Virus record (IMG/VR): IMGVR_UViG_3300033141_004958
Origin: an uncultured virus (IMG/VR IMGVR_UViG_3300033141_004958)
Taxonomy: Duplodnaviria; Heunggongvirae; Uroviricota; Caudoviricetes
Direction: 5' to 3' (one strand)
DNA: 64,000 nt
This document shows, piece by piece, positions 17,013 to 64,000 of the stretch; the stretch's first letter is position 1; every line of letters starts with the position of its first letter. The notes under the pieces were generated by a model. It worked only from the letters and a program-made list of their open reading frames with translations, was not told the DNA's origin and did no database searches. Both the position numbers and the translations under genes were made by a program.

Positions 17013-17453
17013 ATGTTTAGGATTCGAAAGCGCTTTAGGATAGAATATGCGCATGTTTTGGAGAGCTCTTATACTGAAAAATGCCAATCTATCCATGGCC
17101 ATTCTGGAATAATTGATGTATATTTAACGTCAGCACAATGCAATAAAGATGGTATGGTTGTGGATTTCGGTAAAGTTAAGGAGGTTATTAGTAGTATAAT
17201 AGATAAATATGATCATGCACTTTTGCTTCACGAAGATAAGGTTGATAAGTACAAAAGCCAACTATCAGATAGCAAAAAGATTGTTTCTGTGCCTGGAAAC
17301 CCAACGGCAGAATTATTGGCATGCCTTTTGTTTATGGAAATAAAAACAGAATTGTTACGCATGGAAACATTGGATCCAGATGTAAATAATGTTCGGTTGG
17401 AGCGAGTTCGATTCCATGAGACCGAAAGTGGCTGGGCAGAATACTGGCAATAG
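17013..17453 (+). CDS. queD: 6-carboxy-5,6,7,8-tetrahydropterin synthase
   Basis: AH, CQSIHGHS, MVVDFG, DHALL, NPTAE, HET motifs; AAGGAG RBS. Confidence 0.93.
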   Translation: MFRIRKRFRIEYAHVLESSYTEKCQSIHGHSGIIDVYLTSAQCNKDGMVVDFGKVKEVISSIIDKYDHALLLHEDKVDKYKSQLSDSKKIVSVPGNPTAELLACLLFMEIKTELLRMETLDPDVNNVRLERVRFHETESGWAEYWQ

Positions 17454-17468
17454 AAAGCGAGATAGAAT

Positions 17469-18059
17469 ATGATAAATCCCGCACATGAAAAGACGACGTC
17501 AATAAATAAAAGTCGCATAGCAGGGCTAATGCGGCAGATTATCGAAACTGGACTTGGTTTGGATATAAAAGACCCTAATCTTAGGGAAACTCCTGAACGT
17601 ATAGCAAAGATGTATATTGATGAATGGTTTAGATCGTTATATGAGGATCCACCCAAAATAACTGTTTTTCCGAACGAAGATAATTATAATCAAATGATTG
17701 TATCTGGGCCCATCCATGTCAAATCAGTTTGCTCGCATCATTTTGTTCCATTTACGGGAATTTGTTATGTTGGATATATTCCAAAGAATTTTTATATTGG
17801 ACTTAGCAAATTAAGTAGAATTGTGCATTACTTTATGCGCATGCCACAGCTCCAGGAGCGAATGACAGACCAAATAGCTACATTTTTAGATACTACAGTG
17901 TCGCCTCTTGGCTGTGGAGTTTATATCAAAGCCCAACATGCTTGCATGACTACACGTGGTGTAGAAGAGCCAGATGCGTTTATGATTACTACGGCACTCA
18001 AAGGTATTTTTCTTGAAAATCCCGCAGTAAAGCAAGAATTTTTATCATACACCAAATAA
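17469..18059 (+). CDS. folE: GTP cyclohydrolase I
   Basis: ETPERIAK, SVCSHHFVPF, GLSKLSR, QLQER, HACMTTRGV. Confidence 0.97.
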   Translation: MINPAHEKTTSINKSRIAGLMRQIIETGLGLDIKDPNLRETPERIAKMYIDEWFRSLYEDPPKITVFPNEDNYNQMIVSGPIHVKSVCSHHFVPFTGICYVGYIPKNFYIGLSKLSRIVHYFMRMPQLQERMTDQIATFLDTTVSPLGCGVYIKAQHACMTTRGVEEPDAFMITTALKGIFLENPAVKQEFLSYTK

Positions 18060-18074
18060 TACAAGGGGAATTGA

Positions 18075-19319
18075 ATGAAAAATCTCATTTATGTGCCATC
18101 TATAAGTGTTGGAACAATGGTTCTGTGTATACGTGGAGACCGTAGGTTTGCCAATGAACGATTTCGTTTTTATAATAAAGGATCCAGTCCAATTTATCAT
18201 CCGCACATAATGATTTCCATGGCTTATTGTTTCGATCTTCATGGAAAAAATCTTAGAGATGTTTATAAAATGGATGAGGATGTTGTAGTATATGGAGATA
18301 GTGGTGGATTTCAAGTAATCTCATCATCCAAAGATACATTAAAAAATTTAACACCAGAAAATATATTAAATATGCTTGAGACGCATTGTAATATTGGATT
18401 GATATTGGATATTCCCCCAAAACGACCATGGAGTCATGATAGCAGTGAGATTGAATATTATAATTATGCACTACAAACGACATATAATAATGCTAAGTAC
18501 TTTTATGAAAATAGACAAGGTAAATGTAAATTATTGAATGTTCTCCAAGGCCGACCTGGAGCCGGACTTAAAAAGTGGTATCATACCATGAAGAATTTTG
18601 ATTTTGATGGATGGGCAGTAGCAGCAAATGAGACCTTGTCCGTAAAATCTATTCAGAAACCACAAACGGCGGCATTAACAGGAACTCAGAAAACGGACGG
18701 CCACGTACTTGCAGATATATTTTATCTAATGCAAAATGGAGAGTTTGAAAAGTCAAATAACAAATACTTGCATATTCTCGGCGTTGGATCAATGTATCAT
18801 ATTGTGACTTTTATATTTTTCCAACATATGTTAAACCGAATGGGATATGATATACAAGTCACGGTTGACGCATCTAATGTAAGTTTGATATCCGGATATG
18901 GTAGGGCAATTATTGCCGATGCTGTGGTTAATATGATTCGATATGATAGTTGTATCGATTATAGTTCAGTATATGACATGCCGTTGCCTTGCGATTGCCC
19001 TGTATGCCGCGACCTCTTAATAAGTGATATATCAGATTTTGGAACTCATCAATATGCGTACATCACACTTCATAATCTGTATGTCCAGCTCCGGCGCATC
19101 GAATTCTTTAATAGATTTTTTGATATAACAACGCGCCTTGGAGAGTCGGGATTTGGTATGCTTACGAATATATCGAATAAGACAGTAAAGAAACTTAGGC
19201 TGATCTCAGAGGCAATACAATCGAAAACACCATATGATACCTTTATAGCCAATGCGTCTGAAGTATTTAGGACCACAGAATCTGTGCAAACCAACATTGA
19301 TACGAGTAGTTTGTTTTAA
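18075..19319 (+). CDS. TGT-fold 7-deazaguanine transglycosylase (tRNA-guanine transglycosylase / DpdA-like)
   Basis: GDSGGFQ, LDIPP, LQG, HILGVG, DASN and CDCPVC...HN zinc site; downstream of queD-folE. Confidence 0.88.
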   Translation: MKNLIYVPSISVGTMVLCIRGDRRFANERFRFYNKGSSPIYHPHIMISMAYCFDLHGKNLRDVYKMDEDVVVYGDSGGFQVISSSKDTLKNLTPENILNMLETHCNIGLILDIPPKRPWSHDSSEIEYYNYALQTTYNNAKYFYENRQGKCKLLNVLQGRPGAGLKKWYHTMKNFDFDGWAVAANETLSVKSIQKPQTAALTGTQKTDGHVLADIFYLMQNGEFEKSNNKYLHILGVGSMYHIVTFIFFQHMLNRMGYDIQVTVDASNVSLISGYGRAIIADAVVNMIRYDSCIDYSSVYDMPLPCDCPVCRDLLISDISDFGTHQYAYITLHNLYVQLRRIEFFNRFFDITTRLGESGFGMLTNISNKTVKKLRLISEAIQSKTPYDTFIANASEVFRTTESVQTNIDTSSLF

Positions 19320-46272: not shown

Positions 46273-46300
46273 TTGACGTGCCGTTATTTCAATATATAAT
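46273..46300 (+). promoter_or_regulatory. Sigma70-type promoter
   Basis: TTGACG-16 bp-TATAAT with upstream A-tract, before tRNA-Ala. Confidence 0.75.
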
Positions 46301-47658: not shown

Positions 47659-47686
47659 TTGACCGTGTTGCCATATTATATATAAT
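47659..47686 (+). promoter_or_regulatory. Sigma70-type promoter
   Basis: TTGACC-16 bp-TATAAT with T-tract upstream. Confidence 0.75.
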
Positions 47687-48311: not shown

Positions 48312-48398
48312 GCCGTTGTACCCAAGTCTGGTTAAAGGGGCGTGACTGTAAATTACGCGACGTTGTCTTCGTAGGTTCGAATCCTACCAACGGCACCA
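48312..48398 (+). tRNA. tRNA-Tyr(GTA)
   Basis: Cloverleaf with long variable arm, loop CTGTAAA, CCA. Confidence 0.93.
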
Positions 48399-48402
48399 TT
48401 GA

Positions 48403-48587
48403 TTTAAGCGGCCAAAGTGGCAATGTAATAGAATTTGAGAAAGGGATGTGGAGGGTCGAGCGTGGCAGTACTGCCAGGCCATAGGTCCAGTGACTTAAAT
48501 AACTATAAGTATGCATTGGGTGTATCTCAAATTCGTACAGTGTGGGGCCCATATTGCATTAATGCATTATGGGGCGGCCGCCTTAAA
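48403..48587 (+). ncRNA. Candidate structured ncRNA A (about 185 nt)
   Basis: Terminal stem TTTAAGCGGCC/GGCCG(C)CTTAAA; perfect 10-bp GAATTTGAGA/TCTCAAATTC; internal hairpins; no credible ORF. Confidence 0.65.
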
Positions 48588-48605
48588 ATTTATTGGAATT
48601 TTTTC

Positions 48606-48633
48606 TTACCTGGAAGAAGTTGTACTATATAAT
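48606..48633 (+). promoter_or_regulatory. Possible sigma70-type promoter
   Basis: TTACCT-16 bp-TATAAT. Confidence 0.5.
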
Positions 48634-48659
48634 ATATGATAATATATGACAATTGACAA

Positions 48660-48800
48660 TGTGGCGGCTAAGCTCTTTGGTAAGAGCACGCTTATCACCC
48701 TAATTATCTTGATAAGCGGAGGTTGGGAGGCACCGAGTTTATTATTCGTGAGGGCGATGGTAAATTCGACGCGCCTTAAGGGTTCGATTCCCCCCATTAT
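48660..48800 (+). ncRNA. tRNA-like RNA with extra arms, no anticodon loop or CCA
   Basis: D-arm-like GCTCTT-TGGT-AAGAGC, 9-bp CGCTTATCA/TGATAAGCG stem, two more hairpins, GGG-TTCGATT-CCC T-arm. Confidence 0.55.
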
Positions 48801-48808
48801 AATAAGAT

Positions 48809-48897
48809 TTATGGGGCGCGGCAAATTGGAACGGAATAAAGCGGATCGAGGAAGAAAAACATAGCAAAAGAGGTAGTATATATCCCGCGCCCCATAA
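48809..48897 (+). ncRNA. Candidate small RNA: 13-bp perfect stem closing a purine-rich, GGA-rich loop
   Basis: TTATGGGGCGCGG (48809-48821) / CCGCGCCCCATAA (48885-48897). Confidence 0.55.
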
Positions 48898-48916
48898 TTT
48901 ATCAAAATTTGATAGA

Positions 48917-48984
48917 GCGGATATGGTGAAATGGTATCATCTTTGGCGCCAAAGGTTGCGGGTTCGAATCCGCTATTCGCTCCA
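48917..48984 (+). pseudogene. tRNA-Gly-like gene lacking an anticodon loop
   Basis: GCGGATA/TATTCGC acceptor, U73, CCA; anticodon arm collapsed to CTTTGG-CG-CCAAAG. Confidence 0.75.
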
Positions 48985-49028
48985 AATTTTCTTAAGAGTG
49001 CTGAGTGTAGAAGTAGAATATGAATGGC

Positions 49029-49103
49029 GGTGGACGTAGCTTAATAGGAAAGCATGCGGCTGTGACCCGCAGGATAGGGGTGCAAATCCCCTCGTTCACC
49101 CCA
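49029..49103 (+). tRNA. tRNA-His(GTG)
   Basis: G-1:C73, loop CTGTGAC, CCA. Confidence 0.93.
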
Positions 49104-49122
49104 AGATCTTTAAAAAATAAAC

Positions 49123-49316
49123 TTCTGAGTGGTAATGGTTGCGTTAAGATATGTTGGCTGATCATGTAGCCCGAGTATCAGCAGGTCAAAAGGCGACACC
49201 GTTTCCACCGACCTACAATAGTACCCGCACAATGGCGGTCTTAACGCGGCAATCCTCATCGCCTCCGCGCTTATGACTCGATGACGATTGAGATTTATAG
49301 ATGTCACCACTCAGAA
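49123..49316 (+). ncRNA. Candidate structured ncRNA B (about 194 nt)
   Basis: Terminal stem TTCTGAGTGGT/ACCACTCAGAA; 12-bp GTTGCGTTAAGA/TCTTAACGCGGC; three enclosed hairpins; 3' side hairpin. Confidence 0.7.
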
Positions 49317-49326
49317 TAATAATATT

Positions 49327-49402
49327 GGCCTGGTAGTATCAATAGTAAGAACGCTGTCCTGTCAAGGCAGTAGTGCGAGTGCAAGTCTCGTCCGGGCCGC
49401 CA
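49327..49402 (+). tRNA. tRNA-Asp(GTC)
   Basis: Cloverleaf, loop CTGTCAA, G73, CCA. Confidence 0.9.
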
Positions 49403-49426
49403 GTATTATGGTGATATTGGACGCGC

Positions 49427-49500
49427 GAGTCGGTCGGTTAATGGTAAACTTCCGGTCTCCAAAACCGGCACTGAAGGTTCAAGTCCTTCCCGGCTCGCCA
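49427..49500 (+). tRNA. tRNA-Trp(CCA)
   Basis: Loop CTCCAAA, G73, CCA. Confidence 0.92.
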
Positions 49501-49536
49501 ATGTTTTTATGTAATGGAGGTATTAAAAATAACTAT

Positions 49537-49624
49537 TCCGAAGTCGCCTAATGGTATGGCAGCAGACTGTTAATCTGCCGTGGATTAATCCACATTGTAG
49601 GTTCGAATCCTACCTTCGGAGCCA
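49537..49624 (+). tRNA. tRNA-Asn(GTT) with long variable arm
   Basis: TCCGAAG/CTTCGGA, loop CTGTTAA, V-arm GTGGA-TTAA-TCCAC, G73, CCA. Confidence 0.9.
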
Positions 49625-49631
49625 ATTTTTT

Positions 49632-49705
49632 AGCCCCGTAGCCTAATGGAAAGGCGCAAGATTCTGGCTCTTGTGATGTGCGTTCGACTCGCACCGGGGC
49701 TTCCA
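49632..49705 (+). tRNA. tRNA-Gln(CTG)
   Basis: Loop TTCTGGC, CCA. Confidence 0.9.
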
Positions 49706-49727
49706 AATATCTATTCATCCTAATATT

Positions 49728-49819
49728 GGCGGGGTGCCAGAGTGGGTTATTGGAGCGGTCTTGAAAACCGTCGGTGTTCTACCAAACATCCGTGGGTTCG
49801 AATCCCACCCCCGCCGCCA
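49728..49819 (+). tRNA. tRNA-Ser(TGA)
   Basis: Long V-arm, loop CTTGAAA, G73, CCA. Confidence 0.93.
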
Positions 49820-49846
49820 CCTTATTAATATATAATAGGAGTAAGC

Positions 49847-50534: not shown

Positions 50535-51548
50535 ATGTCAAAACAACAATTGGAAAAAGTCGAACTTCTGTGGTCACGCGCATGCCCGTTCAATTGTGCG
50601 GGGTGTGCTATGAAGAAAGCGGTTAATTATAATGACTCGGGTACGATAGAAGAGTGGAAACGGGGATTTGAAAATATTAAGGCTCTTGGATGTGAATTTG
50701 TGGCCATATATGGTGCAGAGCCCCTTGTTAGATTTAATTCGCTCGTAGATATCATACGACTAATACATACCGTTGGCATGGAATGTACTGTTATAACGGC
50801 ACTATATGCTAAAGATAAAGTGCAAGAGTTGATAGATAAATCTGGGCTTAACTCCATTACGATATCTTATGATGGGATTGCCGAAGATGACAGAACTACT
50901 AAGGGGATGAATGGACTTAAGTTGCTCAAAGACATAGAGGTAGATGATAAAGCAGTTTGTTGTACAATATCCAAATTAAATCAAACGCGACTCATCCAAA
51001 CGATGGATGAAGTATTGGATACGGGTTACTGGTTTCTATTTGATATTGCGCACAAGGCGAACCAACCCGCGCAAGTTAGTAAATGTTCTGATACACTAGA
51101 ACCCGTAGAAGCGAATTGGCTTAAGCAATTTTTAACTGCGGCTATTGAGCGAAAAGAAGATGGGGCAAAAATACATCCCAGCATACATTGGATGACCTAT
51201 CTTAAAGAGCATTATGCTGATGGCCCAGGTGATGTTGCCAGAAACGTGTGGCATTGCTATGATGAGAATACGGCAACACTTGGATGGATAACGGTGGAAT
51301 TTAATGGATTGGTGTACCCGTGTGACGACTATCAAATCCCGATAGTAAATCCGGCAACATCTCACGCGCTGCGAATATGGACGCTTAATGAAATAGATGT
51401 TGAGACACTGGTGAAAGAACGAAATCGAATTGTTCGTCCTTGCCGCGGCTGCGCTTGGAATACACATGCAGATGCGATGAGCATAACGTCTGGCGAAATT
51501 GATAGAGGTACTTATGTCCATAATCTTTTTGGAGAAGACCATGCATAA
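50535..51548 (+). CDS. Radical SAM enzyme with SPASM/twitch-like C-terminus
   Basis: CPFNCAGC, YGAEPL, ISYDG, C...TVEFNGLVYPC...CRGC; GGAGG RBS. Confidence 0.88.
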   Translation: MSKQQLEKVELLWSRACPFNCAGCAMKKAVNYNDSGTIEEWKRGFENIKALGCEFVAIYGAEPLVRFNSLVDIIRLIHTVGMECTVITALYAKDKVQELIDKSGLNSITISYDGIAEDDRTTKGMNGLKLLKDIEVDDKAVCCTISKLNQTRLIQTMDEVLDTGYWFLFDIAHKANQPAQVSKCSDTLEPVEANWLKQFLTAAIERKEDGAKIHPSIHWMTYLKEHYADGPGDVARNVWHCYDENTATLGWITVEFNGLVYPCDDYQIPIVNPATSHALRIWTLNEIDVETLVKERNRIVRPCRGCAWNTHADAMSITSGEIDRGTYVHNLFGEDHA

Positions 51549-52518
51549 AGTCATTTTATGCTCCGGTGGGATTGATAGTTTTATAATGTACGAATGGCTG
51601 TTGTCGAATAAACAGCTATTTGATATATTTACGCCGTTGTATATTGATTATGGGCAAAAGTATGTAAAGGCGGAATTAGAAGCATTAAATAGGTTGATAC
51701 CAAATATAGAAGTAATTAGGGTACAAGGGACGCCATATGAAGAAATAAACAGTGGCTTTACGCCGGCACGAAATTTATTTTTGGCGTCGATCGCCGTGAT
51801 GTATGCAAATGCTGACATTGTTTATATGGCCGGATTGAAAGACGATAATGTATCCGACAAAAATCCGGAAGCATTTGAGCAGATGGGGTATATGCTTTCT
51901 AAGTTTAGTAGAAAGAAAATAATTGTAGATAGTCCGTTTTTTGACGTAACAAAGGCACAAATAGTAAGCAAATATCTTGCTGCTGGTGGAAGCCCAGACA
52001 AATTACGCGAGACCTTTTCGTGTTATGCGCCCATTCGAGAAAAAGATCCTTGCTATAATTGCCCTGCATGTTTTCGTAGATGGGTCGCGTTAACAGCCAA
52101 TGGTATTTCAATGCCACCAATAAACCGCGATATTGTATTAAAATACCTAAAGAAACTTAACAATTATTGCCCGGAGCGAGTTAACGCAACACTTGCTGCC
52201 CTTAATGTACATTTTCGCGACGGGATATATTTGATAGATATAGATAATATACTAACTGCGGAGACAAGTACATCAGGAGTTCCCAATTATAAGGATTATC
52301 ATGTACATGCTCATAACGCCGCGGCAGTTAGGGCAATATATCATGAGCATAAGGATGTGGCAATAATCCTTTATACCAGCAGATGGGGCATAGACCGATA
52401 TATTACCGAGCAATGGCTTGCAGAAAACCAAATACCATATCATGCACTATTGATGGATAAACCATTTGCAACTAAATATATCGATGATAAAGCAGTAAAT
52501 AGTCTTGATTTTACATAG
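51541..52518 (+). CDS. queC: QueC-family PP-loop ATPase (7-cyano-7-deazaguanine synthase-like) fused to a C-terminal HAD-like phosphatase domain
   Basis: SGGIDS, DYGQ, PARNLFL, TFSCY, CYNCPACFRR; then IDIDNIL, YTSR, KP, YIDDKA. Confidence 0.85.
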   Translation: MHKVILCSGGIDSFIMYEWLLSNKQLFDIFTPLYIDYGQKYVKAELEALNRLIPNIEVIRVQGTPYEEINSGFTPARNLFLASIAVMYANADIVYMAGLKDDNVSDKNPEAFEQMGYMLSKFSRKKIIVDSPFFDVTKAQIVSKYLAAGGSPDKLRETFSCYAPIREKDPCYNCPACFRRWVALTANGISMPPINRDIVLKYLKKLNNYCPERVNATLAALNVHFRDGIYLIDIDNILTAETSTSGVPNYKDYHVHAHNAAAVRAIYHEHKDVAIILYTSRWGIDRYITEQWLAENQIPYHALLMDKPFATKYIDDKAVNSLDFT

Positions 52519-54926: not shown

Positions 54927-55001
54927 GCCGGGCGTCGTATAATAGAATTATGACCGCCTCGTAAGCGGTAGACGCGGGTGCGATTCCCGCCCCCGGCTCC
55001 A
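54927..55001 (+). tRNA. tRNA-Thr(CGT)
   Basis: Loop CTCGTAA, CCA; one extra nt in acceptor 5' strand. Confidence 0.8.
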
Positions 55002-55193: not shown

Positions 55194-55273
55194 AATGGGG
55201 TAGCCAGTAGTCGGGATGGGCCGGCCTCATAAGTCGGTATTTGGTGTGGGTGCAATTCTCATCCCCGCCACCA
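55194..55273 (+). tRNA. Degenerate tRNA-Met(CAT)
   Basis: Loop CTCATAA, T-arm and CCA present; first two acceptor pairs mismatched, irregular D-arm. Confidence 0.6.
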
Positions 55274-57410: not shown

Positions 57411-58898
57411 TTGAAATCGTCGAGCAAATATTTATCCGCATTTCTAAATATTGCATCGCCAAAAGTATCTATCATAATTTTGTCTAAAGACCGCCCGGAG
57501 CTTATCAAGCGATGTATTAAAAGCATTGAAGAACATGTCCGATACGAATCGTTAGAAATAATTATTGGTGATACGGGCAGCACAGATCGCCGCGTCATCA
57601 AATTCTATGACACACTTAAGAGCCCCAAATATAAAGTCATAAAGAATCTAGAATACCACTTCTCCAAAGCAAATAACGAACTTGCAGATATAGCATCAGG
57701 TGAGTTTTTATTATTTATGAACAACGATGTTTTTCTATCATGGGATGTTGTCTCCCGCGCCATGGAATATGCTGTTTGTTATAATATTGGCTCTATTGGT
57801 TGTCGATTGGTATTCCCAGAGACTGGGCTCATTGAGCATGATGGCCAAGTATTATTTAATTCAAAAGGAATTGTTACACCTGGACATTTGAATTTATTCA
57901 AAGATCCGGATCCACTGGATACCACCCCCATTAAGGTACATGGCGTAACCGGAGCATTTCTTCTTACACCTAAATGTTTATTCAAACATATCGGCGGTTT
58001 TAATCCAAAATATCGAGATTTATACCAAGACTGCGATTATTCCATGAAAGTCCTATCTTCGGGGCTTAGGAATATTGTAATTAGAGATCTGCCAACCTTT
58101 CATATGGGAAGTGCAACAAGGGGCAAAACACATAGCCGCGACCCCATTATGAAGCAAGATAAAGCTTTATTTCAAAGGACATGGAACGAGGCAGTTCCAG
58201 GAATAATTAAACGACCCAAACCATACCTAACAGTAATTACTGCAGTAACAAATCCAAAACTATACAGCAATATGCTTGGTTCATTGCTAATTGGTGGCGG
58301 ATCTTCTGATATAGAAGTAATTCCTATCAATAATAGAGACCTTCGATATAATATTCCACAAGCTCTTAATCGAGCGCACACTTTTGCTTCTGGTAAATAT
58401 ATAATGTATTGTCACCAAGACGTGCTGTTTTCGCCAGGGTGGTATAGAAATGTTAAAGCAGTGATAAAAGCCATAAAGAATTTCGGTGTATTGGGATTTG
58501 AGGGGATAGACAAAAATGGGCATCCCCATAGCTGTAAACAAATGTCTGAAACCCAATTTAAACAAATACTAACTCTTGATGAATTAGCTATAATAGTTCC
58601 TAATGATGATATTCGATTTTCAGAAAAATTGACTTGGCACTTCTATGGTGCTGATATATGCTTTAAGTATGATACCAGGGGCATTAAGAATTTTATATGT
58701 GGTTGTAGGGTAAATCACCTATCTAACGGCAGAGTTAATATAATTAATAGCCCCGAAATAATGAAACGAGATGCAAGAATATTATGGAAGATGTGGAGCA
58801 ATGCCTACGATATGGTAAGGACAACCACAACAACCTTTAGACAAGGCGAAATCGAATTTCAAATTTGTTCAGACCTTTTAGGAACCATATCGGCATAG
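57411..58898 (+). CDS. Two-domain GT2-type glycosyltransferase
   Basis: VSIIILSKD, DTGSTD, FMNND, VTGAFL, QDCDY; second domain YCHQDV, TLDE, HFYGADIC. Confidence 0.88.
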   Translation: MKSSSKYLSAFLNIASPKVSIIILSKDRPELIKRCIKSIEEHVRYESLEIIIGDTGSTDRRVIKFYDTLKSPKYKVIKNLEYHFSKANNELADIASGEFLLFMNNDVFLSWDVVSRAMEYAVCYNIGSIGCRLVFPETGLIEHDGQVLFNSKGIVTPGHLNLFKDPDPLDTTPIKVHGVTGAFLLTPKCLFKHIGGFNPKYRDLYQDCDYSMKVLSSGLRNIVIRDLPTFHMGSATRGKTHSRDPIMKQDKALFQRTWNEAVPGIIKRPKPYLTVITAVTNPKLYSNMLGSLLIGGGSSDIEVIPINNRDLRYNIPQALNRAHTFASGKYIMYCHQDVLFSPGWYRNVKAVIKAIKNFGVLGFEGIDKNGHPHSCKQMSETQFKQILTLDELAIIVPNDDIRFSEKLTWHFYGADICFKYDTRGIKNFICGCRVNHLSNGRVNIINSPEIMKRDARILWKMWSNAYDMVRTTTTTFRQGEIEFQICSDLLGTISA

Positions 58899-58908
58899 GG
58901 GGAGATGT

Positions 58909-59679
58909 ATGGAAAGAGTGAATATATTTGTACCTATATATTTCAGAGAGCCTGTAGTAAAAGAGTGTGTCACTTCTCTAATCAAATTATGTCAATCCGA
59001 CTCTCCTAAATATGCAACAAAAATAATTCTGATAGACAATCGTAGCAATGATGAACTTAGAGATTGGTTATTACAACAATCATATGATAATGAAGTTGTA
59101 GAAACCGAGCTCTTAGATTATAATATGGGCAAGGGTTGCGCTATAAATAAAATGGCCGAGAAATATAGTGATTTCGATTACCTAATAAGTTGTGACTCAG
59201 ATATAAAACATCTTACACAGGGATGGGCAGATAAGCTTGTTAATGCATATGTCAGGCTACCCAATTTTGGTATGGTGTCGCCCAAATATCATGGGAGGCA
59301 TAACCCAATGCCACCTCAACCCAGAAAAATAACTATACCACTCAATTCAGATGGCCCAGAAATTATTTGTCATTTTGGCGGCGAGGTGGCTGGGGGATGT
59401 TTCGTAACGGATGCTATTAGTTGGTCTACCTTAGGTGGTTATATAGATAGGAAGTATGGCGGATTAGATGGTCTATATCGCATCAGAATAACAAAGGAGC
59501 TAGGGAAACAATGCGGATATGTAGACCACATAACCGTTGAACACCACGATGGCCGCGAGTATTATCCCAATTATTTTCAATGGAAGATAGAAATTCAACG
59601 ACATCTGAGTAGAATGGGCATAAGAGCAGACCCAGATATGGCAGATTTTGCAGATGCGAATGTAAAGGATTTGTCATGA
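58909..59679 (+). CDS. GT2-family glycosyltransferase
   Basis: IDNRSND, NMGKG.AIN, CDSDI, GGCF, YGGLDG. Confidence 0.82.
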   Translation: MERVNIFVPIYFREPVVKECVTSLIKLCQSDSPKYATKIILIDNRSNDELRDWLLQQSYDNEVVETELLDYNMGKGCAINKMAEKYSDFDYLISCDSDIKHLTQGWADKLVNAYVRLPNFGMVSPKYHGRHNPMPPQPRKITIPLNSDGPEIICHFGGEVAGGCFVTDAISWSTLGGYIDRKYGGLDGLYRIRITKELGKQCGYVDHITVEHHDGREYYPNYFQWKIEIQRHLSRMGIRADPDMADFADANVKDLS

Positions 59680-60617
59680 CAAGGCCCAAACTTCTTCTGA
59701 CAATTGGGGAAGGTATAGGAAATATTATCGAGGCGCTGCCGCTAATAGCAACCCTCGAGGGGCATGGGTTCGATGTTGATATATTTATAACGCATGCTAA
59801 TATACCAATTCCAAATAATTTGTTTAAGTTTAATACTGTCTTTCAGGAAGGGGACGATGATAATATAGATATAGCGAAATATGATGGACGCATAGATACG
59901 ATATGGGGAGCCATCCATACCAAAGAAAATTCACCAATAAAAAAATTAAAACGGCTAAACAATCTAAGGTCTCAGAAAATAACAAATGGTAGATCTGATA
60001 TAAAAACATATCTAACTGCGGCCAGTGATTTGGGAATTCCCCAAAATCAATTCATTTATTACGTTCGTCATCTTCTTACAATACCACCAACAACATCTCA
60101 TAAAGAATCACCAGATGTCGTAATATGTAATGGCTATAATCGTACTAATATCAGGGCGAAGTGGGTAGCCAAAAGTTACCCTTACTGGGAAGAGGTTGCA
60201 AAGAGATTAAAGGAATGCGGGTATAGAGTATGCTCTACCGGTCTTCCTGACGATTATGTGCCCGGGACTATAAACAAAACAGGAATTTCGTTAGATGAAT
60301 CTATACAATTATTGGTACAAGCAAATATACTATTAGCCAATGATACTGGATTATATCATTTGGCCTGCGCATTGGAAGTCCCAGTCGTTGTTGTCTTTAC
60401 GTTTACAGATCTTGCAAGATTATATGATGTAGATTTTCACCGTACGGCGACTGTTATTCAAAAATCAGATATAGAATGTCGCAATACATGCCAACAACAA
60501 ATGCGATGGATAAATTGCAATGATTGGAAATGCCGACAGATTCATCCTGATGTGATCTTTTCCGCCACGCGAAGATTATTAATAAATAATAATATAGAAG
60601 GGGAACAACATGGATAA
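59676..60617 (+). CDS. GT9 (heptosyltransferase-like) glycosyltransferase
   Basis: EGIGNII..LP, KSYPYW, ANDTGLYHLACAL..P.V. Confidence 0.85.
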   Translation: MTRPKLLLTIGEGIGNIIEALPLIATLEGHGFDVDIFITHANIPIPNNLFKFNTVFQEGDDDNIDIAKYDGRIDTIWGAIHTKENSPIKKLKRLNNLRSQKITNGRSDIKTYLTAASDLGIPQNQFIYYVRHLLTIPPTTSHKESPDVVICNGYNRTNIRAKWVAKSYPYWEEVAKRLKECGYRVCSTGLPDDYVPGTINKTGISLDESIQLLVQANILLANDTGLYHLACALEVPVVVVFTFTDLARLYDVDFHRTATVIQKSDIECRNTCQQQMRWINCNDWKCRQIHPDVIFSATRRLLINNNIEGEQHG

Positions 60618-61569
60618 AGGCTTTACAGTTTGGATGACCGGATTACCAGCCGCAGGCAAAACTACTATCGGTACGTTAATAGCAGATAAATTTAATGCGC
60701 AATTGCTCGATGGTGATAATCTACGAAATAGCTATATTAGTGGTGACGCAGACTTCTCGCGAGAAGGTAGGAGAAAACATCTACTCAAAGTTGCCGAGAT
60801 AGCAAAACTATTAAATGATAATGGAATTCCGGTAGTAGTTAGTTGTATATCGCCTTTTGGATCCGTTAGAGACGAAGCCAGAAAAATTATTGGAGTAGAG
60901 CAATTTACATTGGTCTTTGTTGATACTCCAAAAGAGTTATGCGAAATTAGAGATCCGAAGGGGATGTGGGCCAAAGCAAGAAACGGTAAAATTAAAAATT
61001 TCACAGGCGTGGATAGTGAATATGAAATTCCTACGAATGCCGATTTCACTCTAACAACCTATGATATAAATCAGTCTAATGGCGATATAATTGAATATGA
61101 AAACGCGAATATTTATACGACGGTGGCATTGCTCGAAGATCATATTAGAACCAAGTTTAAATTAACCCAACACCCTCGCACAGTTTTCATAGGTAGGTGG
61201 TCACCATTCCATTATGGTCATAAAGCACTTATCGATAAGCACATTGACAATGGAGAATATATAGCTATTTTCATTCGCGATACTAAAGTGGATGCCAATA
61301 ATCCATGGCTTGCTACCGATCGGTACGAAATGATACGCTCTGTTTATCCGGACCAAGAAGTTGTGCAAATTCAAATAATTCCAGATGTTTCCGCAATTGC
61401 TATAGGTCGAAATGTTGGCTATGATGTTATAGCTGAAGACCTGCCCGATGATATTGAAATGATAAGCGGCACCGAAATTAGGAAAGCAATACGTGAGGGA
61501 CGAGATATATGGAAAAAATATGTTCCAGAAGAGGTTATATCATATATAAGTTCAAAAAGAAATATATGA
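60610..61569 (+). CDS. cysC: Adenylyl-sulfate kinase fused to an HxGH nucleotidyltransferase-like domain
   Basis: WMTGLPAAGKTT, LDGDNLR, ISPF, RDPKG, FTGVDSEYEIP; then IGRWSPFHYGH, GRNVGY, ISGTEIR. Confidence 0.9.
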   Translation: MDKGFTVWMTGLPAAGKTTIGTLIADKFNAQLLDGDNLRNSYISGDADFSREGRRKHLLKVAEIAKLLNDNGIPVVVSCISPFGSVRDEARKIIGVEQFTLVFVDTPKELCEIRDPKGMWAKARNGKIKNFTGVDSEYEIPTNADFTLTTYDINQSNGDIIEYENANIYTTVALLEDHIRTKFKLTQHPRTVFIGRWSPFHYGHKALIDKHIDNGEYIAIFIRDTKVDANNPWLATDRYEMIRSVYPDQEVVQIQIIPDVSAIAIGRNVGYDVIAEDLPDDIEMISGTEIRKAIREGRDIWKKYVPEEVISYISSKRNI

Positions 61570-61651
61570 TGGTACTATCGAGATAATCCCAAATGACGAT
61601 AGCCATAACTTCTTTGAGCTCGTTATCAATAATTTATCCAAAGGCGAAAAA

Positions 61652-62581
61652 ATGAAAGTATTATTAATATTTCCACAAAAAGATGGCCAAACTGGGGTTG
61701 CTATACGAACTGCTCTAGAGAAAGAGCATGACGTAGTTACCATAGACCCCAATATCAATCCAACTAATATAACCACGATAGCAACCAAAACGAAACCACG
61801 GTTGATTATATGTTCTCGCACAATTTCACTCGCAACGCCAGTTTATCAAATAAAACAACAACTGCCAGGTACTACCATTTGCGTTTGGAATACCGATGTC
61901 CGGCCATCGCTTAAAGACTGGGCGGCTTGGTTGCCATTATTCAAACAAGTGCATTATTACTTTGGATCATCTCCATATGACGCGGATATGATGCGCCAAA
62001 TCAACCCAAGTTCATATTATTTACCACAGGGGCTACAGGATGATGTATATGGCATACCAAAGACAGCCATAACAAGAAAGGATATAGATAAATATGCATG
62101 CGATGTGTCATTTATAGGGGATATACATCAGCCCATTCATGCATTTAGACAGCCCTATATTACTGCACTTATTAAATCGAATTTAAAATTTAAAATATGG
62201 GGCTCTGAAAACCAACCACAAATATACGGTGAAGATCATAATAAGGCTGTTATACTAAGCACAATTAATTTAGGATTATCTACAACTTTTAATGGTAAAG
62301 CGACAGGTAGTTGTAGTGTTAGAAATTATAAGATTATGGGGACTGGTGGATTTCTACTTGAACACTACTCTAAAGCTTTAGAACAATGGTTTCCATTGGA
62401 TGCGAAACATTGCATATTTGGAACCTTTACATCTCCCGCTAATATGATTAAAAAAATTGAAAGGTATATAAACAATGATGGTTTGCGACGGCAAATTGCT
62501 TTGCGTGGATTGCGGTGGGCTCGACGCAATACATATACACATCGAATACAACAAATGCTGGATATAATGGGGTTGAAATGA
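61652..62581 (+). CDS. CgeB-like GT-B glycosyltransferase
   Basis: DVSFIG, R..Y, WG, INLG, SVRNYKIMGTGGFLL, TYTHRI. Confidence 0.82.
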   Translation: MKVLLIFPQKDGQTGVAIRTALEKEHDVVTIDPNINPTNITTIATKTKPRLIICSRTISLATPVYQIKQQLPGTTICVWNTDVRPSLKDWAAWLPLFKQVHYYFGSSPYDADMMRQINPSSYYLPQGLQDDVYGIPKTAITRKDIDKYACDVSFIGDIHQPIHAFRQPYITALIKSNLKFKIWGSENQPQIYGEDHNKAVILSTINLGLSTTFNGKATGSCSVRNYKIMGTGGFLLEHYSKALEQWFPLDAKHCIFGTFTSPANMIKKIERYINNDGLRRQIALRGLRWARRNTYTHRIQQMLDIMGLK

Positions 62582-63312
62582 AAAACGCTATAGTAACATT
62601 GGCTATCGGTGAATCAGAGATTTGGGATTATACGTTTCCTATTTTCAAGATGGTTTGTTGTCGACGGGGTTGGGATTTTTGTGTTATCAACAAAAGAAAA
62701 TTGAACTTATTCCCTGATGCCGAAGCATATAATATTATGTTCGAAAAATTTCAGGTTGTTGACTACTTTAAAGATTATGATAGGGTGCTATTGATAGATG
62801 GGGATATTTTACTCTCTCCCAAATATCCTGATATATTTGATGCTACTCCTATTGATGCGATAGGTTGCGTCTATGAAGATAAGGGCAGTAGACAGTTAAA
62901 TCGCCGCGCGCGAATACAACAGATAAAATTAATTACTAACGATAGTCGCCTTAATGACTGGAACACTGGTTATATGAATGCAGGCATGTTAGTATATTCT
63001 CGAAGCCATGCAAATGCCCTAAAGATAACATCACTCGATGACATCATAAAAACCCATATATCCAGCGACCAAAACACAGTAAACTATCTATGTCATCGCT
63101 CCAATCACCCAATTTGTGACTTAGGATATAAATGGAACCATATGTCAATGTTCTCGGAAGTATGGAATGGGGCCCCAAGTCGATATGATTCATATGCAAT
63201 ACATTATGCAGGTGGGGCAAGGTTCCCTGGAACAACATCCCCAAATAGAAATGCAGAAGAACAGCGCATGTACCTACTTAGAAAAGATTATGCATATTGG
63301 TGGGGTCTATAG
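62578..63312 (+). CDS. GT-A glycosyltransferase (GT8-like)
   Basis: YDRVLLIDGDIL, YMNAGML, DQNTVN, KWN, IHYAG. Confidence 0.8.
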   Translation: MKNAIVTLAIGESEIWDYTFPIFKMVCCRRGWDFCVINKRKLNLFPDAEAYNIMFEKFQVVDYFKDYDRVLLIDGDILLSPKYPDIFDATPIDAIGCVYEDKGSRQLNRRARIQQIKLITNDSRLNDWNTGYMNAGMLVYSRSHANALKITSLDDIIKTHISSDQNTVNYLCHRSNHPICDLGYKWNHMSMFSEVWNGAPSRYDSYAIHYAGGARFPGTTSPNRNAEEQRMYLLRKDYAYWWGL

Positions 63313-63926
63313 CATTGAAACGAGATAGCATAACTATAACGGCCGTTCCCAAGCCAGTTCTAAAACATCAACATATTATTATGGAATTTCCACCTGAATT
63401 TAATAGCATAATAAACATTGGCTGTGGTGAATGTGCATTCGATTTATTTCTTAAGCATGACGTACCGGAAATAAACTTAATTAGTATTGATATACAACAA
63501 CCTGCCACACTTTCCATGGAACAGATATCTTACTTGGATTTTAGAGTGGGTGATATACTTGATATATCAACAATACCAGTTAGAGGTGATGTCGTTATCG
63601 CCTCAGAAGTACTAGAACATATTGCGGACTGGAAATCTGCATTTAGAAACTTACTAGAACTATTCAATAAAACTCTCATACTAACAATACCTTGGCGGAA
63701 ATCATACAATTCTCCTGGGCATATTAATTTTTGGGATGATACATGTAGCGATGGTATTATGGCAATAGATACGTTTGTGATTGTGATGAAACAATATTTA
63801 TCCAGTGCTTCAAACGTAACCCTGAAATGGAAATTCAAAAAGATATTGACTAAAGAAGAAGACCGAGAAATGCAGCAACGATGTTATTTAATAACCATAA
63901 CAAAGGAACATATATGTGACAAATAA
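63297..63926 (+). CDS. Class I SAM-dependent methyltransferase
   Basis: INIGCGE, IDI, GDI, SEVLEHI, LTIP, GHINF; start uncertain. Confidence 0.82.
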   Translation: MVGSIALKRDSITITAVPKPVLKHQHIIMEFPPEFNSIINIGCGECAFDLFLKHDVPEINLISIDIQQPATLSMEQISYLDFRVGDILDISTIPVRGDVVIASEVLEHIADWKSAFRNLLELFNKTLILTIPWRKSYNSPGHINFWDDTCSDGIMAIDTFVIVMKQYLSSASNVTLKWKFKKILTKEEDREMQQRCYLITITKEHICDK

Positions 63927-64000
63927 AAAAGATATTTACCGACATAGAATAGATATAGATTTAATTTCTGATGATTCTATTATACTTGATGTTGGAGTTT
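63916..64000 (+). CDS. Partial ORF, probable methyltransferase (FkbM-like) N-terminus
   Basis: VTNKKDIYRHRIDIDLISDDSIILDVGV runs off the window; AAGGA RBS. Confidence 0.45.
   Translation, partial: MTNKKDIYRHRIDIDLISDDSIILDVGV

Follow-up and report, generated by a model that had tools for sequence, protein, structure and literature searches.

Element T, a stretch of 194 nt between the tRNA-His and tRNA-Asp genes in the tRNA island of an uncultured T4-like phage, is probably a stable RNA of the tRNA operon that represents an uncatalogued family. Phage tRNA-operon stable RNAs of the T4/T5 type form a class by context and not a sequence family, and T lies as a unit of a tRNA operon between short AT-rich spacers, is non-coding and has a stable predicted fold. 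In our preferred reading, T would be a stand-alone noncoding RNA gene of the operon that is freed by tRNA processing and acts as a protein-binding RNA, to which we assign a probability of about 0.5. That T is a real RNA gene we consider quite likely, and a protein-binding role, granted such a gene, is a tentative proposal by analogy that falls somewhat below even odds. The initial annotation had proposed a stable noncoding RNA released through tRNA processing; this is the best reading of T and is partly supported.

The window analyzed here is the first 64,000 nucleotides of a virus record of 126,449 bp, and all of the tRNAs that ARAGORN predicted in it (24/24) lie on the plus strand. The edges of T fall at AT-rich spacers sized like those between the tRNAs of the island (Table 1). 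The element had been described as a GC-rich unit among AT-rich spacers, and its GC content is indeed 49%, compared with 39.6% for the genome and 16% for the upstream spacer, with 0% G/C in the downstream spacer. The plus strand also has the three top-scoring promoter-like sites of the island, all of the form TTGAC-16-TATAAT; the island promoters at window positions 46273, 47659, 52505, 52943, and 54810 have in common an extended TATATAAT box and a spacer of 16 nt. No terminator-like site on the plus strand was listed within 48586-49830, and no plus-strand ORF of at least 60 aa lies over T, bar one that begins in its last 29 nt. Elsewhere on the plus strand, ARAGORN overlooked a tRNA-like gene with anticodon CGU (54928-55001; Rfam, 39.4 bits) and another with anticodon CAU (~55197-55272; below the Rfam gathering score).

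Table 1. Features of element T, the neighboring island units and the T5 units used for comparison
Feature	Position	Strand	Basis
Promoter-like site TTGACC-16-TATAAT, 11/12, precedes tRNA group	47659..47686	+	Motif scan
Unit A, 185-nt fold, z -3.7	48403..48587	+	Fold
TATATAAT box resembling island promoters, without good -35; possible start of T transcript	48626..48633	+	Motif scan
Unit B, tRNA-like, long inserts	~48659-48800	+	Fold
Unit C, strong 11-bp closing stem, A-rich interior	48811..48897	+	Fold
Unit D, tRNA-shaped, 40.7 bits, overlooked by ARAGORN	48917..48985	+	Rfam
tRNA-His(GUG), upstream neighbor of T	49030..49103	+	ARAGORN, Rfam
19-nt AT-rich spacer following encoded CCA of tRNA-His; likely processing site	49104..49122	+	Sequence
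Element T, candidate stable noncoding RNA, 194 nt, ends closed by terminal helix	49123..49316	+	Fold, no Rfam match
P1, 5' strand, 11 bp with 49306-49316, no G-U	49123..49133	+	Pairing model
P2 domain, helix 49138-49149/49239-49250 (12 bp) around P3, P4 and P5	49138..49250	+	Fold
P3 hairpin, GCTGAT/ATCAGC (49157-62/49177-82), 6 bp, 14-nt loop	49157..49182	+	Pair probability ~0.6
P4 hairpin, AGGTC/GACCT (49183-87/49210-14), 5-bp base, weak inner stem	49183..49214	+	Probability 0.84-0.99
P5 hairpin, CCGC/GCGG (49225-28/49235-38), 4 G-C pairs, 6-nt loop	49225..49238	+	Probability 0.84-0.99
P6 hairpin, 49251-61/49279-89, 4+6 bp, 17-nt loop	49251..49289	+	Probability ~0.85
16-nt linker, P6 to P1, unpaired or weakly so	49290..49305	+	Pairing model
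P1, 3' strand, not followed by CCA	49306..49316	+	Sequence
10-nt spacer, A/T throughout, ahead of tRNA-Asp; likely processing site	49317..49326	+	Sequence
tRNA-Asp(GUC), downstream neighbor of T	49327..49402	+	ARAGORN, Rfam
T5 non-tRNA units: RNA2H (172 nt); RNA I, III, IV; tRNA-like RNA1, RNA2, RNA3			AY543070.1

The helices annotated initially in T were confirmed. The 11-bp terminal helix (P1) is present where it had been placed, contains no mismatch and no G-U pair, and has pair probabilities of 0.75-1.0; a 4-nt linker separates it from the 12-bp helix P2, which includes two U-G pairs (pair probabilities, 0.69-1.0). The three hairpins described inside P2 were all recovered at their positions, and so was the hairpin on the 3' side (P6), with one small correction: C49250 can close P2 or the 3' hairpin, never both, and the pairing model assigns it to P2. 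The 17-nt loop of P6 opens with CCUCC at 49262, which we take to be anti-Shine-Dalgarno-like. The minimum free energy of T is -63.7 kcal/mol (z = -3.40), and 0 of 200 shuffles were equally stable. Among 110 random 194-nt windows from the same phage outside 46-56 kb (12 shuffles each), one had a z value of -3.4 or lower and none reached -63.7, although this control is lenient because the background windows are mostly coding and have lower GC.

The only homologue of T that we found is carried by one IMG/VR contig (the twin), which is 99.83% identical across 18.8 kb. The twin differs from T by 1 change in 194 (A49222G), which lies in an unpaired junction and is compatible with the fold but carries no statistical weight. 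Beyond the twin, blastn against phages gave four chance matches of 25-30 nt (E, 2-8), and blastn against plasmids gave no homologue of T. Pattern scans of IMG/VR yielded 0, 17, 47, and 7 hits, with the twin as 1 hit in each of the last three; a further IMG/VR scan yielded at least 120 hits, with the twin's sequence in 1 among the matches listed, and a metagenome scan yielded 0. A covariance model of T, rough and of low sensitivity, found no new homologue in loci from 92 sources (1.0 Mb), 89 sources (0.4 Mb; these include 80 of the at least 120 IMG/VR pattern loci, the remainder having been scored separately), and 54 sources, nor in whole records (0/24, 1/22 [the twin], and 0/23), and distant homologues may be missed, since only two near-identical sequences underlie the model and the first filter of the record search was loose. 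Searches with nhmmer, using T and four adjacent units (A to D) on 247 and 121 loci, gave the twin or chance matches only. BLAST against two samples of 401 bacterial genomes yielded 8 matches in one and 4 in the other, all chance fragments 19-31 nt long; the best T-model score among them was 13.2 bits, on a fragment. Within the phage genome itself, no paralogue of T was found and no exact copy or complement longer than 11 nt exists elsewhere. Judged by these searches, T is so far a singleton, probably of an uncatalogued family; that it should be a singleton is expected because the phage has no close relatives.

The genome encodes a T4-like set of morphogenesis and replication proteins (gp23, portal, sheath, gp32, polB, UvsW, and RegA by Pfam). 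The closest non-self relative of the terminase is 39% identical, that of the radical SAM protein 43%, and the closest cultured-phage relative of the capsid protein ~31%. The twin aside, identity to relatives of the head-completion protein, the terminase, and the radical SAM gene does not exceed 47%, and tRNAs were present at 3 of the 27 loci checked around them. By sequence comparison, the phage appears to be an isolated, very divergent T4-like lineage with no close relatives save the twin contig. Pfam additionally identified an anaerobic ribonucleotide reductase, FolE/QueD/QueC/TGT-like genes, and an RNA ligase gene, and it gave no match to a reverse transcriptase or Ro60 among the 127 phage proteins scanned. 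Genes for PTPS/QueD, GTP cyclohydrolase I, TGT-like, QueC-like, and radical SAM proteins (window 17013-19316 and 51499-52518; genome 65378-66759) likely constitute a 7-deazaguanine DNA modification pathway. A glycosyltransferase cluster (GT2, GT8, GT9, and GT1-like) with APS kinase, sulfotransferase, and FkbM methyltransferases extends from window 57411-64000 on to genome position 65281, an unusual glycan-building capacity for a phage. About seven paralogous repetitive ORFs with a common N-terminal motif and no Pfam match were also observed at genome 82691-89469.

Comparison with known RNA families gave T no assignment. At gathering scores, Rfam detected tRNAs only in the whole window and nothing on T, and across 48380-49440 at an E value of ≤10 the only match touching T was permuted tmRNA, at 14.4 bits versus a cut-off of 47, which rests mostly on the T-arm of tRNA-His. 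The earlier statement that T matches no tmRNA, RNase P, signal recognition particle (SRP) RNA, or riboswitch was borne out by the Rfam covariance search. ARAGORN detected no tmRNA in the window, and T has no tRNA-like domain; a T-loop pattern, a tRNA-like T-arm, an anticodon arm, and a terminal CCA are all absent from it. The CR-I and CR-V patterns of RNase P RNA, the helix 8 pattern of SRP RNA, and a tmRNA pattern were absent from the plus strand of T, and Rfam gave no RNase P or SRP match. Nor did the plus strand of T contain motifs of hammerhead, twister, pistol, or hatchet ribozymes or of group I or group II introns, and an unvalidated HDV-like descriptor found nothing in T. For GOLLD and ROOL there was no Rfam match to T even at an E value of ≤10; these phage RNAs often lie close to tRNA islands and have no known function (10.1101/2024.12.08.627333), but they are far larger than T, GOLLD often exceeding 800 nt. 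Self-cleaving theta (HDV-like) ribozymes have been found beside phage tRNAs (PMC10879173), and, like T, they are structured RNAs directly 3' of a phage tRNA. However, theta ribozymes are minimal and their cleavage site adjoins the tRNA, whereas T is a 194-nt closed fold that begins 19 nt off. A literature search found no published description of T, and five 12-mers of T and the sample number of the twin had no match in those supplementary files of Fremin 2023 (PMC10690425) that were covered.

A loose analogy had been drawn between T and the T4 species 1/2 RNAs (rnaC/rnaD; NC_000866.4, 70908-71171). The analogy holds for the tRNA-operon context, since these too are small structured RNAs in a tRNA cluster of a T4-like phage, but it does not extend to a T-arm, a 3' CCA, or homology with rnaD. 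The T4 RNAs are 139 and 119 nt versus 194 nt for T, and rnaC has a T-arm while T does not. T4 RNAC and RNAD are described as products of the tRNA region with unknown roles (PMC3014915; PMC9697503; PMC12685909). Among 45 pairwise comparisons (five island units by nine T4/T5 RNAs), T versus T4 rnaD stood out, with a score equalled in 5 of 5,000 shuffles, and a hand alignment of the P3 region of T with the rnaD core looked suggestive. Nevertheless, T was rejected as an rnaD homologue: a covariance model of 8 rnaD sequences produced 0 hits in the window at an E value of ≤5 with filters off, an HMM of 9 rnaD sequences had no match on T, only T4 of 8 sequences was borderline with cheap long gaps (19/1,500 shuffles), and 23 of 2,604 genome windows scored equally well. 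The conserved rnaD words of 9 aligned sequences are absent from T. In the course of this comparison, unannotated rnaD relatives turned up in records of Karamvirus and Jiaodavirus phages and in one Vequintavirinae phage; they share a short conserved core, and their middle hairpin is freely variable.

The tRNA region of T5 (AY543070.1) contains seven annotated misc RNAs of unknown function, of which RNA1, RNA I, and RNA III sit just upstream of tRNA-His. Similarly, the island studied here mixes tRNA-like and closed-helix units near tRNA-His. T5 RNA2H is a multibranch RNA of T-like size within a tRNA operon and has a 10-bp terminal helix, but its branching order is unlike that of T and there is no sequence similarity. 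An HMM of 6 RNA2H sequences found nothing in T or the genome (pairwise P = 0.26), and T was rejected as an RNA2H homologue; it was also rejected as a T4 rnaC or T5 RNA1/RNA2 type, having no T-arm and no CCA (pairwise P = 0.72-0.82). As modeled, the closed multibranch layout of T appears closer to that of T5 RNA2H than to the T4 species 1/2 RNAs.

Together with T, units A to D make five noncanonical units between tRNA-Tyr and tRNA-Asp. Unit A repeats the helix order of T, in which a terminal helix and a 4-nt linker lead into a long stem that carries three hairpins, followed by a 3' hairpin; this unit had no Rfam match, was not matched by the T model, and had no homologue among the loci searched. 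Unit B, which recalls T5 RNA1/RNA2, combines a D-arm and an anticodon arm extended to 9 bp with a long hairpin insertion and a 3-bp T-stem, and the twin carries a change at 48697 that turns an A-U pair into G-U. Unit C has four GGA words (48828, 48833, 48843, and 48850) and could, by analogy, be a CsrA/RsmA-binding sponge. The anticodon loop of unit D is collapsed to ~2 nt, and unit D is, as modeled, a putative anticodon-less tRNA mimic.

Several other explanations of T have to be weighed against the protein-binding RNA gene. T could be a decayed or neutral relic, i.e., an rnaD-like or RNase P-like remnant or an insertion that folds without function. The absence of T from every distant phage searched and its pairwise score with T4 rnaD (5/5,000 shuffles) are consistent with this, as is a helix order (terminal helix, branched domain, hairpin, and single strand) that by eye resembles RNase P RNA; we take the likeness to the bacterial RNA to be rough and confined to helix order. 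However, the long helices of T are intact, including a P1 without mismatch, and a singleton is expected in a phage that has no close relatives. The rnaD covariance model and HMM both miss T, just 1 of 8 rnaD sequences gave an unusual score, which other genome windows equalled, and the conserved regions of RNase P are absent; overall, we consider a relic unlikely. Alternatively, T might be a base-pairing small RNA whose P6 loop covers host or phage Shine-Dalgarno sequences and damps translation. Some bacterial small RNAs pair through C-rich loop motifs, and CCTCC at 49262 lies within the 17-nt loop, but a single 5-mer among ~100 unpaired bases arises easily by chance and the longest exact complement or copy elsewhere in the phage genome is at most 11 nt, leaving this explanation quite improbable.

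T could also be compact and pseudoknotted, a new ribozyme or a new ligand-binding fold in which the tip of P6 docks on the P3 and P4 loops. Two perfect complements, one of 6 bp (49191-96/49259-64) and one of 5 bp (49172-76/49276-80), speak for this, as do the self-cleaving ribozymes reported beside phage tRNAs (PMC10879173). Yet a 6-bp plus 5-bp loop-loop match appeared in 20% of 3,000 loop shuffles, strand release would cost 12.5 kcal/mol against 13.0 gained, and the ribozyme and intron motifs are absent, the unvalidated HDV-like descriptor also being empty; such a fold is therefore very unlikely. A bolder version, only slightly less doubtful, would make T the founding member of a class of phage RNAs that are compact and doubly pseudoknotted, with the P6 tip docked on the P3/P4 loops, and T and units A to D an RNA-only toolkit, catalytic or protein trapping, for takeover of host translation or for disarming RNA-targeting immunity. 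The least probable alternative places the function on the minus strand, as an antisense RNA or a 66-codon ORF (49110-49310) that covers almost the same interval as T. The G-U pairs had been said to favor the plus strand, and those in P2 do, but they do not settle the strand: the minus-strand sequence reaches -70.6 (z = -4.36), a fold at least as stable as that of the plus strand, because the interior of P4 pairs better on the minus strand. A weak promoter-like site (9/12) is also present on that strand at 49342-49313, but 9/12 sites are at chance level (46 found versus 29 expected). For the ORF, neither PHROG nor a 5.8-billion set, in which proteins of 36-116 aa were considered, provided a match; its GTG start is not preceded by a Shine-Dalgarno-like sequence, and the single change in the twin is nonsynonymous in its frame. 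The minus strand also opposes the plus-strand operon. Since the fold does not fix the strand, T is assigned to the plus strand because of the orientation of that operon.

Returning to the protein-binding RNA gene, T would be cotranscribed with tRNA-His and tRNA-Asp. RNase P cleaves at the 5' ends of tRNAs during tRNA maturation, and a cut by the host enzyme at the 5' end of tRNA-Asp, combined with cleavage or trimming within the AT-rich spacers, would release T. P1 would then join the ends of T and shield them from exonucleases, and the RNA would act in trans as a folded protein-binding decoy or scaffold. The weakest step is the proposal, by analogy, that abundant T may titrate a host RNA-binding protein or an RNA-targeting defense nuclease. 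A protein-binding role is our best guess because T lacks tRNA identity elements and a ribozyme core and has no long complementary stretch in the phage genome. Protein titration would also fit the role of the island in supporting translation, and the phage encodes an RNA ligase. One tRNA of T5 counteracts a tRNA-cutting defense (PMC11464382). Against a decoy role, T lacks the T-arm, the anticodon arm, and the CCA by which a tRNA-directed protein would recognize it.

The stable RNAs of phage tRNA operons, such as T4 RNAC/RNAD and the T5 RNAs, have long been described and are still catalogued without a known function. T adds to them an uncatalogued predicted fold, found in a T4-like lineage that is very divergent, and the presence of a T5-like cassette layout in an unrelated phage suggests that such RNAs may answer a recurring need.
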